DNA from: Vulcanimicrobiota bacterium
GTDB taxonomy: Bacteria > Vulcanimicrobiota > Vulcanimicrobiia > Vulcanimicrobiales > Vulcanimicrobiaceae
NCBI GenBank assembly: GCA_963833095.1
Contig: CAWHWQ010000005.1
Coordinates: forward strand, 416,001 to 480,000
Length of the DNA stretch: 64,000 bases
Reading direction: 5' to 3'
Position numbers: made by a program. Of this stretch, positions 38,101 to 44,100 are shown one piece after another (positions within the stretch are counted from its first letter, which is position 1; each line of letters starts with the position of its first letter).

Positions 38101-41100
38101 CACTGCCGCACCATGCCGAGGTTGCGGTTATCGAGCAGAATGATCTTCACCGGAAGTTCGTGGCGGCGTAGGGTCGCAAGCTCGGCCATCGACATCTGGA
38201 ATCCGCCGTCGCCCACGATCGCGACCACCATGCGACCCGGGTGCGCCATCTGGGCGCCGATCGCCGCCGGTAGACCGAAGCCCATCGAACCGAGGCCGCC
38301 GGAGGTGAGGAAATGTTGCGGATGGCTGGCGCGCACGCGCTGCGCTGCCCACATTTGATGTTGACCGACGTCCGTTGCCACGATCGCATCCTCGGGCAGC
38401 GCGGCAAACAGCGCATCGAGGAAATCGGTCGCGGAGAGATGGTCGTGGCGCGCGTCGTCGCGCGGCAGCTGTTCTTGCGGTGCGCACGCGGCGCTACGCC
38501 ACTCTTCAAAAGAGGGCAAGGTCACACGCGCAAGGCGATGATCGAGCGCAGCCAGGGTTTCACGCAGGTCGCCATGCAGCGTGATCTGCGCGCGCACGAC
38601 CTTATTGAACTCGGCTTTGTCGATATCGGCGTGAACGATCGTGTGCGCGTTCGGTGCGAACTTGGCGGGATCGCCGGTCACCCGGTCGTCAAAACGCATG
38701 CCTAGCGCGAAGATCACATCGGCCTTGGACACCGCAAGGTTCGCGCGCTTCCATCCGTGCATTCCAAGCATGCCGACAAATGCCGGGTCGCCTGGGTCAG
38801 CGCATCCAAGGCCGTGCAGGGTCGACGCGATCGGCGCGCCGATGTGCGCCGCAAGGGCGCGAAAGATCTCCGTCGCGCCGGACCAGCGCGCGCCGCCACC
38901 CACAATGAGCACCGGCCGCTTCGCGCCCTCGAGCGCGGCAACCGCGGCATCGAGCGACCGGGCATCGGCGCGCGGCCGTTCGCGCACGGGCGTTTGCGGG
39001 ACTGCGGGTTTGCGCTGCTCTTCTTCGAACGCGCGCAACACGTCGGTCGGAAGATCGACGAGGACCGGCCCCGGGCGATCGCTCGTGGCCAGACGAAAGG
39101 CCGCGCGCAGCGCCGGCTCGATCTGCTCGATCGAGCGCACTACGATGTTGCGTTTGGTCACCTGGTGGGTGATAGCCGCTACGTCGACTTCCTGGAACGC
39201 GTCGGTTCCCATCACCGTGCTGCGCACCTGGCCGGTAAGGGCCACGAGCGGCACGTTATCCATCATTGCATCCACGATGCCGGTGATCAGATTCGTCGCG
39301 CCCGGACCGGAGGTCGCGATGCACACACCCGGACGGCCGGTCGAGCGCGCGAACCCGCTGGCAGCAAAAACAGCCGCGGCTTCGTGACGTACGAGCACGT
39401 GCGCAATACGATGATCGTAGAGTGCATCGTAGAGGGGCATGATCGCGCCGCCCGGATAGCCGAACACTGTTTCGACTCCCAAGCTCTCGAGTGTATCGAG
39501 AACGATCGCTGCGCCCGTGCGCGTGTGCACGATGAACCTCCGGTTCTAAAAAAACAAGAGGCCCCGCCGAACCGGCGGGGCCTCTTGCTAGTGCGTTTCT
39601 CGCTAACCTCTACGCAGTAGTCAATCCCAACCGGTTCGGCGACGAACGGCTAATAAGGGCGAGGACTACGAGGAGGAGCGAGGCCAAAATCATGTTGTTG
39701 CACCCTACCATGGGCCAACTCCGACTGTCAAGCGGCATAGCGCCGTCCCCGCCAGATAACCCCGCCGCGCGCATGCGCAACAACCGAAGTCACGAAAATC
39801 GCCACAACCAGCGTAATACCGATCGGTAGGTACCACGACGACCAGCGCCCCAAGCCGAGGCGTCGCATGCCCGACGATGCACCCACGATTGCGCAGAGCA
39901 TGGCAAGCGCGAGCGCTGCAGCCGCGGCTTCGGCCTTCACCACGAGCGCCACAACGACCGCGATCGGTGTAACCGGCGCCACGCACGCCAGCAAAATGAT
40001 CCCAAGCGCGGCAAAGGTCCCCTGATCGCGCGCGGCGACCCAGAAATTCTTTACGAAGCCCTGCCAGAGTTCGCCGAATGAGCGATACATGCGCACCCGG
40101 ATGAGCCCGTCGCCGTTGACGAGCGCGGTACGAAAGCGCCCGTCGCTCTTGAAGCGGCGCGCAAGCTCGAGATCCTCGGCGATCTCGCTGCGAACCGCCT
40201 CGTGACCGCCGATCGCCTCATATGCGCGGCGGACCGCGAGTATATATTGGCCGTTGAAGAGCGCGTTCTCACGAGCCGGGTCGTTGATCGCGCGCAGCGA
40301 CCCGATCGCAAACGCGATCGTCCAGAGAATGCTGGGAAGAAAGATCCGTTCGGCCGGCGTTATCATGATCTGCTCGGTCAACACACTAAGCACGTCGAGA
40401 TTGTGCGCTCGCGCATAAGTGAGGGAAGCGCTGGTGGCGCCGGGTTCGTGTTGCGTGTCGGCATCGGTGAAGAGCAGCCAATCCCCGCGCGCGTGCTGTG
40501 CGCCTTGGTGCAGAGCCCAAGGCTTTCCCACCCAACCGCTCGGTAGGATCTCTCCGGCAATCAATCGCACGCGCGGATCCTCGCCTGCAATGCGCGCGAC
40601 GATGGCGGCAGTGTCGTCCTCCGATCGATCGTCCACGACGATGATTTCGACATGCGGATAGTTTTGCGCGAGGAGTGACCGCACGCATTGCTCGATTTGC
40701 CGCGCCTCGTTGCGCGCCGGGACGATGATGCTGATCTCAGGCGCAACCTTTGGCGGAGGCACCGATTCGAGCGCAAAGCGCGAACGAAACGCGATGTGCT
40801 GACTGCGAAATGCGAACGCCAGATTGATGAGGACCAGCAGCGCAACGATCGTCACAAGCATTGAGGCACGAGTTCCGTCAGCACTTGTCGTCAACCCGCC
40901 AAAGCGGGATAGAGAGGGGCTGGGGCGCTTCGATGGTGTCGACCGCCGATCTGATACACCGCGCGGCTCCGGGTTCGATTCCCGGGCGCTCCAGCCGCGA
41001 TGTCCCACCCGGCGTTGCGAAGTCGTCCGACGTGTGGTATCGTCGGCCATGTATCAGGTCGGCGGACACATCGAAGCGCACGAGGCGCCGCAGCAATGCG

Positions 41101-44100
41101 GCGCTTCGTCTTTCTATTGGTCATACCAATGACGACCGTTGCGGCAAGGCTCTGTTTGCCCGGCCAATGAACACCCTGCGGATGAGTCGTGAGGTTCACG
41201 TCTATTCGCATGGTTCGACGCTTGCAAAGTGGCGGCAGATCATCGAAATTGCGGCGCTGGTCGCTGCCGGGGTCTGGGCCTTCTACGTCTTCGTCTATAA
41301 AGAGCGCATCAAGCCCGCGGGCGAAGCCCCGAATATCCAGATCCTGCGCTCCGCCACGCACGAGGCGCTTCCCCGCGGCAAAGAACTCGTGACCGTCATC
41401 ATCACGCTGAAGAACATCGGAACGGCTAACGTGGAGATGGGCGGTCTCATCGTCAACGCCTATGGGATCCGCTACGGCGATCGGATCGACAGCGCAGCGC
41501 CCGCTACGCGCACAACCGGCCTTATGACGGCAAATCACGGGCTCGTGGATTCCAAGCCCGTGCTTCTCTACACCTACTCCGCGATTTGGATTCCACTCGG
41601 CTCAGCGCGTCCGTTCAAGATCCTCTCGGGCGACACGTTCACGATTCCAATGTCGTTCGTGATCCAGAGCGGCTCCTATGACACACTGCGTCTGAACTTT
41701 GCACGGTGCGATCAGCGCGCCGACAATCTGCTCGTCACGCGCTACCTGCCGCGGATTTTGAAAGACGGATCCTTCGACGTGTCCTCAATGATCGCGCAAG
41801 ACGGTGCGCATTCGGGGCTCGAGTGCGGCGGAACATTATATACGGGCGGAGAGTTCGCCCTGTAGCTCCACGCCCCGTTGCGCAGCCGCCGCAGGCGTGT
41901 ATCGTGGGTTTTGTATCAGGCCTGCAGACACATCGAAGCGCGCTAGGCGTCGGCTTTATGTGCTTTGGGTTGCGTTTCGGCGCGGAGTTGACCGCACGCA
42001 GCCGCGATGTCGCGTCCCATATTCTTGCGCACCGTTGTCGGCACGCCGGCCTTGTCGAGCACCGCCGCAAATTGCCAGATGCGAGCGTCCGTTGTTCCAG
42101 CGAACGGGCCGTCGGGCGTCGTGTTATACGGAATTAAATTGACGTGATAGAGGTTGCCGCGCATCAACTCGGCGAGTTCGCGCGCGCATTCCAAGGAATC
42201 GTTGACCCCTTCGAGCATCACGTACTCGAAGAACACTTTGCGGTTGGTCTTCGCTACGTAGCGCTCGCACGCCGCCATCAATTCTTCCAATGGAAACTTC
42301 CGGTTGACCGGCATGAACGCACTGCGCACCCGGCCGTTCGGCGCATGTAGTGAGATCGCGAGATTGACTTGCAGACCCTCGTCGGCGAAGCGATCGATTT
42401 TGTCGACCAGTCCCACGGTTGAAATCGTGATATGACGATGTCCCAAACCCAAACCGTGCGGATCGTGGAGCAGGGCGACCGCTCCCATCACCGCGTCGTA
42501 ATTGTGGAAGGGCTCACCCATGCCCATGAACACGACGTTGGTGATTCGTTTGTCGCGCGTTGCAAGCTCGCGCGCAAAGTAGCGCGCTTGATCGAAGATT
42601 TCGCGCGAGGTTAGGTTGCGCGTGAATCCGGCCTGCCCGGTCGAGCAGAAGGCGCAGGCAAACGCGCAACCGGCTTGCGAGGAGATGCACACCGTGGTGC
42701 GGTCGCCGCGATGCTCCATCAGCACCGCTTCGACTTCGTTGCCGTCGTGCAGGCGGAACAGCCCTTTGGTGGTCTGCGCGTCGTTCGAGCGCTGGACCAC
42801 TACTGGTGCGACCGACGTAAAGGAGAAGCCGCGTTGCTCGAGCGTTTCGCGCAGTTCTTTGGGCAGCGTCGTTACGTCGCCGATCGCACCGAGCAGCTCC
42901 TTATTTGCGGCACGGTAGATCTGCTTGAGGCGATAGTTTTTGAGGTCGAGTGCGCGCGAGAAGTCATCCGCATCGGCGAAGCCGATATCACGCGCCACCT
43001 CGTCGAACCAAATGGTTTGGGCGTCCATAGCGCCCCATTATATCAGAAGAGGCTCGCTTGCTCAGGCGGCTGTTCCGGCATCACCGGCGCCTCGTCGATC
43101 TTGGTTCGAACGGCCTTGAGGTCCGCCCAAACCATGCGCTTGACCGCCGTGAGCTCTCCGCCCGTTTGGCGGAGCACGTAGGCCGGATGGAAGGTGACCA
43201 TCAACGGAATGCCTGCCGGCCCGTCATACCAACGTCCGCGCATCTTCGTTATTTGAAAGTCGCGACCGAGAAACGATTTTGCCGCGGGGGCGCCCAGCGC
43301 CATGATCACGCGCGGTTGGATGATGTCGATTTGTTCGTCGAGGAACGGACGGCAATTCGCCATCTCGGTCAAATCCGGCGCGCGGTTTTTGGGTCCGCGC
43401 GGACCCGGCATCGTGGGCCGGCATTTGACCGTGTTGCAGATGTAGACTTCCTCGCGCGCAAAGCCGATTGCCGCGAGCATCTTATCGAGCAGTTGGCCCG
43501 CGCGGCCCACGAACGGCCGACCGAGCAGATCTTCGGTCTCGCCTGGGCCTTCGCCGATCACCATCAAACTCGCGCACGGATCGCCTTCCCCATACACATT
43601 GTTGCGACGCTGCGATCCGATCTCGCACTTGCGACACGCCGCGGCGACGCCGGCGCCATGCGCGAGCAATCGCTCGCGCCGTGCGCGCTCCTCAAGCATC
43701 GCCGGGTCCGTTCGGCACGGCCAGCACGGCTTCGCCGAAGGCAACGATCTTGCACGATCCGTCCGGACTTTCGCTGACGTGAAAACTGAGACCGATCACC
43801 GCGTTTGCCCCGACCTGGTTCGCGCGCGCGTAGATGCCCTCGAGCGCCTCCCCACGGAGTTGCTCGGCATCGCTGATGAACTCGCCCGGGGCGACGCCGA
43901 TCAGCATTCCAAGGCTGCGAAACGTCGCGCGAAGCCGGTTTCGCGGTCGCGACGCGACACCGGAGACATACCCGTAGCGCTTGACGATCTGATACCCTTC
44001 GAGTTCATCGAAGGTCACGACCGCCTCGGGCGCAATCATTCCCGTCATGCCGCAGACTTCACCGTCGGTGCTCGTGATCCGCCTCGATGCGATCGGCGAT

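Follow-up and report, generated by a model that had tools for sequence, protein, structure and literature searches.

Type VIII toxin-antitoxin systems are the closest described pairs in which both parts are RNA, with no protein partner; in the available portions of PMC10767807 and PMC12737573, RyeA of SdsR-RyeA acts by direct antisense pairing, and CreT of CreTA acts on translation and tRNA supply. The allo-tRNAs of Mukai et al. (PMC5389517, available in part) are non-canonical tRNAs from soil metagenomes with serine or alanine identity, some with G3:U70, and non-matching anticodons (GUC and GCG among the commonest); they are linked to toxin-antitoxin neighbourhoods, and some caused cell death. 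The tRNA-ProX of Streptomycetaceae combines a fixed acceptor identity with switching anticodons, patchy spread and toxic miscoding, and natural miscoding tRNAs were toxic in E. coli (available part of PMC10404621). The word 'antisense' does not occur in the main text, as available, of PMC5389517 or PMC10404621.

The locus described here lies in a 64,000-nt window (the whole stretch of DNA that was analysed, to whose positions all coordinates refer) and encodes a compact tRNA and an antisense RNA. We read it, with a probability of roughly 60%, as a putative tRNA toxin of the missense type, which would insert Ala, together with an RNA antitoxin that would mask its anticodon, that is, a protein-free toxin-antitoxin-like pair. 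As in type VIII systems, both components are RNA: no conserved ORF was found in the module, and no protein neighbour was shared among the copies. The presumed toxin would differ from those described in the same portions of PMC10767807 and PMC12737573 in being a miscoding tRNA rather than an mRNA-targeting sRNA or rare-codon mini-mRNA, and the putative antitoxin, unlike that of CreTA, would mask the anticodon and requires no Cas proteins, its gene standing separate from the target gene in four layouts. Neither homology to SdsR-RyeA or CreTA nor their layout, which is overlap on opposite strands in the former and a Cas-dependent arrangement with a CRISPR repeat in the latter, was found (no Rfam match, genes that do not overlap, and no cas gene among the 126 neighbours scanned). 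The anticodon is mismatched to the acceptor identity, as in the allo-tRNAs, with no Ala anticodon in 124 intact bacterial copies, whereas the branch is 7/5, rather than 8/4 or 9/3, and a 2-nt linker replaces the long variable arm (PMC5389517, available part).

Fold and acceptor identity of the compact tRNA

The 72-nt tRNA-like gene with an alanine acceptor stem and GAU anticodon, proposed in the first-pass annotation, was re-derived at 40922..40993 on the forward strand, without encoded CCA. It folds into a 7-bp acceptor stem with G3 (40924):U70 (40990) and A73 (40993), one linker base, a D arm with a 4-bp stem and 5-nt GG loop, a long and bulged anticodon arm, a 2-nt linker and a canonical T arm. 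The anticodon loop (40951..40957, forward strand) carries GAU at 40953-40955, predicted to read the Ile codons AUC/AUU. The fold rests on covariation, since the folding energy of the tRNA alone was not above that of shuffles (z -1.04): 97.9% of cells were paired and 13 of 23 pairs varied on both sides (0 of 500 shuffles). The acceptor and T stems (7 and 5 bp) were paired in 99.7% and 99.6% of cells, respectively, the D stem plus 5' anticodon strand amounted to 12 in 118 of 138 bacterial copies, and a standard pair closed the anticodon loop in only 37%. G3:U70, earlier counted in 101 of 103 copies, proved near-universal again (96 of 100 distinct copies, with A73 in 97), and in an unconstrained set, with acceptor and anticodon left free, G3:U70 and A73 each occurred in 61 of 63 copies among the matches listed. 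G1:C72, in 93 of the 100 distinct copies, and the lack of any synthetase gene among the scanned neighbours set the module apart from tRNA-ProX, which has C1:G72, Pro rather than Ala identity, a near-canonical fold and an adjoining dedicated ProRSx gene (proSx) in place of an RNA partner (PMC10404621, available part).

In the window, the 72-nt tRNA was not called by ARAGORN, RF00005 (canonical tRNA) gave no match and, as previously stated, no Rfam family reached its cut, the best being tRNA-Sec at 21 bits against 47; a distant member, L504, exceeded the RF00005 cut at 31 bits. CCA was encoded in none of 124 bacterial copies and in 9 of 70 metagenome/virus copies among the matches listed. The host genome contains many tRNA genes without CCA and a CCA/poly(A)-polymerase-family gene, and the host genus encodes AlaRS, a CCA/poly(A)-polymerase-family gene and RNase III.

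Upstream of the tRNA, a putative weak promoter, P1 (40885..40913, forward strand), consists of a -35-like box (40885-40890) and a non-consensus -10-like box (40908-40913). P1 was missed by a consensus promoter scan of the window and is proposed on its conserved spacing: of 136 intact copies, 113 have TTG/CTT/TTT at -42..-30 and 119 have the box G(T/G)GA(T/A/C). The -10 lacks the usual last T, and a genome-wide count of the motif showed no enrichment (123 versus 103 and 109 at other spacings). A 3-nt leader (40919..40921, forward strand) pairs with bases 73-75 of the precursor, a pairing kept across 100 copies, with pairs -1, -2 and -3 retained in most of them and -2 varying on both sides (CG 74, GC 8, TA 6); it could hinder 3' processing. 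The 3' trailer (40996..41019, forward strand) forms a hairpin without a U run (z -3.57; 0 of 200 shuffles), similar to one in most copies, the right arm of which overlaps the -35 box of the second promoter.

Among known compact folds, tRNA-Pyl (PMC7609411, available part) likewise has 0-1 base between acceptor and D stem, a small D loop, a long anticodon stem and a very short variable part. It differs in G73, a CUA anticodon and the absence of the GG and T-loop motifs, which the module tRNA keeps. The main clade also resembles the tRNA-like domain of tmRNA (RF00023) in its Ala acceptor, G3:U70, T arm and the GG-n-UCGAC motif of the host tmRNA 5' end, but it is very improbable that the gene is a shortened form of that domain which binds SmpB and disturbs ribosome rescue. 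An unpaired D loop and a GAC linker make up the SmpB site motif of tmRNA; here the D stem is paired, in many spellings, and of 70 metagenome/virus copies among the matches listed only 26 had GG-n-UCGAC and 1 had a GAC linker preceding the T stem. Furthermore, tmRNA has no anticodon loop to conserve, the module has no tag frame, and one subfamily carries the acceptor stem of the host tRNA-Ala. Full tmRNA is kept elsewhere in the hosts (5 of 5).

Antisense RNA and cognate pairing

A second promoter, a complementary RNA and a hairpin terminator had been described downstream, and all three were located on the forward strand. The promoter P2 (41015..41043) has a -35 box at 41015-41020, a 17-nt spacer and an extended -10 at 41035-41043; its type, TG-n-TAnnnT, was found just 5' of the antisense start in 121 of 128 copies versus 7 of 134 control windows. 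Several host tRNA genes have an upstream promoter of this type. The antisense small RNA is placed at 41049..41115 and would measure about 62-68 nt, rather than the earlier ~75 nt, if it starts 6-8 nt past the -10 box, as we infer. Its intrinsic terminator (41080..41118) comprises a 13-bp hairpin (41080-41109) and a short U-rich tail. Complementarity to the D and anticodon arms was confirmed with a shift of weight, as the co-varying core is the match of 41051-41065 to the anticodon loop and 5' strand, while that of 41066-41079 to the D arm and acceptor 5' strand is a conserved extension; in several copies the antisense pairs with the 3' strand instead, its centre still being the anticodon. The tRNA/antisense duplex reached -55.4 kcal/mol, versus -32.5 kcal/mol for the best of 41 host tRNAs, and the co-fold gained -31.9 kcal/mol over both monomer folds.

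Since the short RNA carries the complement of the GAU anticodon, its role could in principle be that of a toxin against host tRNA-Ile, with the tRNA-like RNA as its sponge; alternatively, a small peptide could be the toxin, since 118 of 134 copies have an ATG in their D arm. Both variants are exceedingly improbable, as host tRNA-Ile was not even among the top six host-tRNA duplexes, 26 of 68 cassettes persist without a tRNA, and the ATG frame ranges from 3 to >100 codons and is lost in deep members.

The cognate pairing was shown to be under selection. Because the earlier permutation test ignores kinship, 56 disjoint tree pairs were used as a kinship-aware test, in which the antisense base changed with the tRNA base at 168 of 214 sites versus 25 of 402 otherwise, and a sister swap favoured the cognate partner in 53 of the 56. 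Best-match anchoring of the partner inflates raw pairing counts. G-U exceeded A-C mismatches (56 versus 11; more weakly, 13 versus 7 classes, when counted by position and type). A strong partner (score of at least 11) accompanied 128 of 130 intact bacterial copies, the other two scoring 10-10.5 with P2 present. The proposal of a two-RNA module with cognate pairing and a separate promoter was thereby upheld.

The cassette lies downstream, upstream, divergent or convergent relative to the tRNA, and these four layouts argue that it is a separate transcript. They also bear on a reading with no second RNA, in which the two parts form an inverted repeat at the DNA level or one fold-back transcript and template switching keeps them alike. 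In the window the two parts share a strand with 57 nt between them, and a fold-back of -115.6 kcal/mol is possible; no terminator separates them, so a self-masked precursor may also form. Nevertheless, such an origin is highly improbable given the 12 copies with upstream, divergent or convergent cassettes with their own promoter and terminator, the excess of G-U over A-C, the prevalence of P2 and the persistence of orphan cassettes. The tmRNA-like, role-reversed, peptide-toxin and DNA-palindrome candidates were each rejected after testing.

Orphan cassettes were common, no tRNA match standing in front of 26 of 68, whereas clear cassette loss was seen, in bacterial copies, only behind damaged tRNAs. 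One orphan cassette with a promoter lies in the window itself (41878..41952, forward strand), with no tRNA in front; its terminator is cut by the end of a radical-SAM gene, it matches another anticodon-arm spelling, and relatives have a second full module at this site. Thus, the tRNA decays first and the antisense last (4 parses were excluded from the decay/partner count as junk or misparsed), an order that backs the missense tRNA and antidote reading.

Anticodon use, phage relatives and distribution

The 124 intact bacterial copies had G34 in 110, C34 in 12 and A37 in 104. C33 replaced U33 in 36 and C37 occurred in 12, and both may weaken decoding. The earlier description of anticodons as mostly GAU, also GAC/GUC, was too narrow in range, as they extend well past Ile/Val/Asp. 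Codons read by module tRNAs ranked 2-16 in host long ORFs (AUC was 5th in the genome of the window), and A/U-starting anticodons occurred in 12 of 18 low-GC versus 2 of 44 high-GC contigs, kin not being independent. Automated anticodon calls have register errors (CGA/TGA may equal GAG/GAC in another register).

Pattern-scan counts are samples, that is, counts among the matches listed; 52 of 177 pattern matches failed the stem criteria, and these comprise chance matches and also damaged or divergent true copies (L023, L097, L118). For 19 of 238 metagenome/virus tRNAs among the matches listed there was no anticodon call, and for 7 no flank. L539 and L272 were removed for scoring >=12 against non-cassette sequence, and L583 was moved by eye from Ala to GCG. 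Among the matches listed, an antisense cassette accompanied 70 of the 116 copies with a non-Ala sense anticodon, none of the 87 with an Ala anticodon and none of the 14 with a stop anticodon, all of the same fold. For the other 46 missense-type copies, from the metagenome and virus sets among the matches listed, a stretch of 300-800 nt showed no partner; register miscalls account for some of these, and rare codons are read by many. Among phage relatives, a sense version (L275/L311) has the cassette and amber versions (L299/L314/L427) lack it.

Phage tRNA arrays contain the same compact fold with true Ala anticodons and without an antisense partner, and likewise versions with stop anticodons. 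Among the matches listed, the 12-step arm (D stem plus 5' anticodon strand) was found in 69 of 84 such phage tRNAs, and another tRNA gene in the fetched flank of 68 of 82; one occupies a slot among 8 Rfam tRNAs, and one relative is annotated as tRNA-Ala in Pseudomonas phage VCM. The compact phage tRNA-Ala(UGC) shares the 12-step arm with the module tRNA, but the phage genes have a matching anticodon, mostly an encoded CCA and no partner, opposite to the module. Both the common fold and the restriction of cassettes to non-Ala sense anticodons, among the matches listed, support the missense reading. They also weigh on a quite unlikely alternative, in which the tRNA is a non-decoding decoy of AlaRS, EF-Tu, a tRNA-modifying enzyme or an anticodon nuclease, which the antisense removes: a decoy of AlaRS or EF-Tu would harm equally with an Ala or stop anticodon, and the arm length is that of phage tRNA-Ala. 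The frequency of C33, the unencoded CCA and the paired leader would suit a decoy, and some allo-tRNAs and G-1 tRNAs are charged or toxic without decoding (PMC5389517, available part).

Matches to the module, partial ones included, were found in 62 of 150 family genomes, in keeping with the 47 of 100 reported before. The limitation to Vulcanimicrobiota did not hold, as such pairs are spread over soil bacteria, phages and further uncultured microbes, including AT-rich contigs; there, L504 and L477 have neighbours that resemble the clusters richest in Minisyncoccota or Bacteroidota (the second <0.9, a lead only). Phage and plasmid record collections gave no real module match (one 25-nt chance match), nor did a first pattern scan of viral sequences. 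Three RNA runs contained module relatives, mostly at <95% identity, in contigs that span promoters and flanks and so show presence without strand, ends or level. A T-box link to neighbouring ilv/leu genes was dropped because other copies adjoin unrelated genes.

The module is patchy, being present in about half of family f1 genomes, and often multi-copy or in tandem arrays. At some sites the module is inherited vertically next to housekeeping genes, as would also suit a useful function under regulation. The same two RNAs and pairing could thus form a host-beneficial switch, for regulation rather than addiction, in which the antisense keeps a miscoding tRNA inactive except under stress or amino-acid starvation, when the insertion of Ala at hungry codons would keep ribosomes moving or diversify proteins. 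P1, conserved yet non-consensus, may answer a stress signal, the sucC/acyl-CoA dehydrogenase site is stable across genera with anticodon swaps (GAT, GTC and GCC in L104, L106 and L494), and E. coli became more tolerant of carbenicillin through miscoding by tRNA-ProX (PMC10404621, available part). We still consider a switch unlikely, because patchiness, multiple copies, tandem arrays, decayed copies, orphan cassettes and phage presence are marks of a selfish module, and anticodons change freely between unrelated amino acids.

Proposed mode of action and implications

AlaRS reads G3:U70 and ignores the anticodon. As a missense toxin, the tRNA would be trimmed, given CCA and alanylated by the host AlaRS, and its anticodon would read a common non-Ala codon, here Ile AUC/AUU, so that free tRNA would misplace Ala in many proteins and slow or kill the cell. 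The short RNA, from its own stronger promoter, pairs with the tRNA, as the covariation shows; it would meet the anticodon loop first and unzip the arm, which would block decoding and probably expose the duplex to RNase III. The behaviour of toxin-antitoxin systems suggests what would follow a stop in transcription or the loss of the module: the short RNA would disappear before the tRNA, which would then be free. The module would thus serve for addiction, or as a stress/abortive element, and would spread, form duplicates and alter its anticodon in step with the antidote. The missense tRNA and antidote suggested by the first-pass annotation is thus supported at the sequence level by the phage fold, the partner rule and the decay order; its charging, decoding and toxicity are inferred.

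On the same kind of evidence, a broader reading appears slightly favoured over its contrary: such modules may be widespread, undescribed RNA-only addiction elements of bacteria and phages, in which an anticodon-swapped Ala tRNA miscodes the commonest host codons, an antisense RNA in four layouts masks the anticodon, arm and antidote co-diversify, and orphan antidotes give immunity against incoming modules. The literature searched held no published account of the module, and within it this would be the first natural tRNA controlled at the anticodon by its own antisense RNA.

The compact tRNA fold is common in phages and is missed by Rfam and often by ARAGORN, so that annotations both overlook such genes and list some of them wrongly as tRNAs for Asp, Arg or Ser. 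Controlled mistranslation could be studied with natural tRNA/anti-tRNA pairs of orthogonal specificity, which would offer ready-made switches. If the favoured reading is true, a toxin-antitoxin system can consist of ~200 bases and no protein, and it would become testable why tRNAs with an anticodon that contradicts their identity (allo-tRNAs, tRNA-ProX) persist in genomes and phages without poisoning them, a question of long standing.

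The compact tRNA and its cognate antisense RNA

The compact tRNA (window 40922-40993, + strand) has alanine identity. Its acceptor stem of 7 bp carries G3:U70 and A73, and one base links it to a D stem of 4 bp, whose 5-nt loop contains GG. The anticodon arm follows the D stem directly, and 2 nt separate it from a normal T arm. The anticodon is GAU. No call was made by ARAGORN, and no Rfam family passed its threshold. On its 3' side lies a trailer hairpin, followed by a promoter (-35 box and extended -10 box, 17 nt apart), roughly 30 nt of antisense sequence able to pair with bases 4-37 of the tRNA, and a terminator (promoter, antisense RNA and terminator, 41015-41118, are here called the cassette). 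The alanine acceptor, GAU anticodon and T arm reported by the first-pass annotation were thus recovered, as were the second promoter, complementary small RNA and terminator behind them. The module is flanked by a family-2 glycosyltransferase gene on the opposite strand and, on the other side, by an ORF without a Pfam family. In this genus two modules flank a 227-aa ORF without a Pfam family (41182-41865, + strand); the second module has lost its tRNA in the window genome. This genome (81% complete) carries one tRNA copy and two additional cassettes without a tRNA.

Pairing between the two RNAs is cognate. The own partner scored at least 13 of 15 in 86% of 94 modules, compared with 7% for foreign partners. 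Kinship was controlled for with a tree built from regions outside the target and the antisense (113 of 115 copies kept; 56 disjoint pairs): where a tRNA base differed within a pair, the partner base differed at 168 of 214 sites, with pairing kept at 157, compared with only 25 of 402 sites where the tRNA base was unchanged, and swapping partners weakened the duplex in 53 of the 56 pairs. G-U pairs outnumbered A-C pairs (56 to 11, but only 13 to 7 counted by position and type), as expected for an RNA of the + strand. The antisense is under selection to match its tRNA, and it has a promoter motif of its own, an extended -10 box preceding its start in 121 of 128 copies and in 7 of 134 control windows. 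Both the copy-by-copy co-variation and the separate promoter claimed earlier therefore stand. The two-RNA module is real and strongly supported. In several copies (including L089, L093, L123 and L135) the partner has moved onto the loop and 3' strand, which points to the anticodon as the constant target. In family f3 and its kin (L222, L226, L227, L231, L252, L253), an additional hairpin in the tRNA 3' trailer, ahead of the cassette, carries in its loop another stretch that is partly antisense to the anticodon arm, possibly a cis lock on the precursor.

Distribution, layout and anticodons

Of 150 genomes from the family, 62 gave at least a partial match to the module. A model run against 151 phylum genomes placed it in two families of one class, f1 being one of them; the fetched weak matches from other classes proved to be ordinary tRNAs. 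A GTDB scan with acceptor and anticodon unconstrained yielded at least 122 loci. Among the matches listed, true copies within 80 titled loci were mostly Vulcanimicrobiota or synonyms, the remainder being a few titled 'bacterium' only, one Gammaproteobacteria and one Babeliales, and G3:U70 was present in 61 of 63 distinct copies, so that its reported conservation holds under a pattern leaving the acceptor free. The reported range covers most GTDB titles but is too narrow: guarded copies, with a cassette nearby, also occur in phages (a 64.5-kb contig with terminase genes, a complete 96-kb phage and one provirus) and in one genome out of 151 from the phylum to which genome G255 belongs (L320; locus title Vicinamibacterales). 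They span contigs of 30-70% GC, their promoters being consensus-like and their terminators U-tailed. The modules adjoin housekeeping genes of various kinds; a scan of 126 ORFs, about two per locus, turned up no shared protein, synthetase or integrase. The cassette lies mostly downstream, with four copies upstream on the same strand, at least four divergent and four convergent; these layouts rule out a mere fold-back transcript.

In an alignment of 53 copies, 97.9% of cells were paired (37-52% when slid) and 13 of 23 pairs showed changes on both sides; the D stem was invariant in these copies and had many spellings in deeper members. GAU was the commonest anticodon among 124 intact copies (68), followed by GAC (23), GUC (13), CGA (8), GAA (3), GAG, CAC and CAG (2 each) and GCG (1), with 2 miscalls; the first-pass list of GAU, GAC and GUC was thus correct for the commonest but incomplete. 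None of the 124 reads alanine; by use in the host's long ORFs, the codons read by the bacterial copies hold ranks 2-16. Two rows of these counts (L024 and L025, the latter one GAA example) come from unpublished genomes (G028, G134), and no claim depends on them alone.

The same fold with alanine or stop anticodons

Relaxed patterns run on IMG/VR and metagenomes returned at least 238 distinct compact tRNAs with an alanine acceptor, many with true alanine anticodons; as the patterns demanded G3:U70, this set is no evidence for that pair. Among the matches listed, D stem and 5' anticodon strand summed to 12 in 69 of 84 viral alanine-anticodon tRNAs, and likewise in 118 of 138 bacterial elements; by the rule of Steinberg and Cedergren, 12 steps reportedly preserve the tRNA L shape. 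Other tRNA genes adjoin 68 of 82 of the viral versions listed, and one lies among eight Rfam tRNAs, its own score below the cut. The 12-step arm and the place in tRNA arrays make the compact fold very likely usable in translation. This argues against a decoy that does not decode, which we regard as improbable, although the decoding view has weak points in C33 (36 of 124 copies), a CCA that is not encoded, and a leader pairing with bases 73-75. Since a non-U33 base is reported to damp a natural miscoding tRNA, these features may tune the dose.

The anticodon type is linked to the cassette. Among the matches listed, a cassette accompanied none of 87 alanine-anticodon and none of 14 stop-codon versions, and 70 of 116 sense non-alanine versions (37 clusters at 80% identity); in one phage lineage it occurs with the sense version and not with amber relatives. 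Counted against this reading are the 46 of the 116 listed without a partner within the fetched 300-800 nt, some of them register miscalls and many reading rare codons.

Among the matches listed, some 80 tRNA-Ala genes of phages, most with a UGC anticodon, lie within tRNA arrays (L272-L439, IMG/VR; for example, L338:601-672). Their D arm is compact and their anticodon stem long, and the two scanned (L338, L420) fell below the Rfam tRNA cut. Amber (CUA) or ochre (UUA) versions with an alanine acceptor (L281, L299, L425, L427, L470, L476, L495, L505, L555, L572, L321, L322), from phages, metagenomes and two genomes of G255's phylum, had no antisense partner and are candidate natural nonsense suppressors.

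Order of decay and a predicted mechanism

The partner scored at least 11 in 128 of 130 intact bacterial copies (10-10.5, with promoter, in the other two) and was retained in 28 of 38 copies failing a strict intactness rule, some of which are merely divergent. Clear cassette losses (L054, L216, the second copy in L212) all lie behind damaged tRNAs. A separate model for the cassette found 68 in the 151 phylum genomes, 42 after a tRNA match and 26 without; six genomes had cassettes only, one of them with a tRNA remnant. If the tRNA is the harmful component, one would expect just this: damage to the tRNA first, with the cassette kept. A regulated switch for beneficial miscoding, built from the same two RNAs, appears unlikely, if somewhat less so than the decoy.

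Up to five or six cassettes with differing specificities, several of them without a tRNA, stand in tandem at L045 (G136:C2:768700-771100), L244 and L046; these are possibly immunity arrays. In L580 the antisense RNA fits a GAC spelling, and the changed tRNA loop can be read, in an uncertain register, as the alanine anticodon GGC, perhaps a detoxified copy. L579 is an intact GAU copy with unrelated sequence in the cassette's place right behind the trailer (300 nt of flank covered).

The nearest known systems are type VIII systems (SdsR-RyeA, CreTA), with which only the RNA-RNA principle is shared, and allo-tRNAs and tRNA-ProX, from which the module differs in structure and identity. Full-text literature searches, with subscription literature mostly outside them and excluding the allo-tRNA supplements, which map odd-tRNA neighbourhoods and could bear on novelty, turned up no description of a tRNA that has an antisense RNA of its own.

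Genes for AlaRS, a CCA/poly(A)-polymerase-family protein and RNase III are present in the host genus. In the window genome the AlaRS gene (G000:C8:86269-87910) is split over several frames, probably by assembly indel errors, and is whole in three congeners. Host-family tmRNAs with an unusual T loop (L031-L035) received no ARAGORN call, yet scored 117-133 bits in Rfam. It is established that AlaRS recognises G3:U70 rather than the anticodon (PMC9976931, PMC11415595), that a tRNA without a D arm is still accepted by E. coli ribosomes (PMC11551756), and that natural miscoding tRNAs impair growth (PMC10404621).

We favour, with a probability of roughly 0.6, a miscoding tRNA toxin paired with an anticodon-masking antitoxin, both toxicity and masking being predicted. 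The tRNA would be processed, receive CCA and be charged, and its miscoding would be toxic; the antisense RNA would block it, with RNase III turning over the duplex, and decay of this antidote would release the tRNA.
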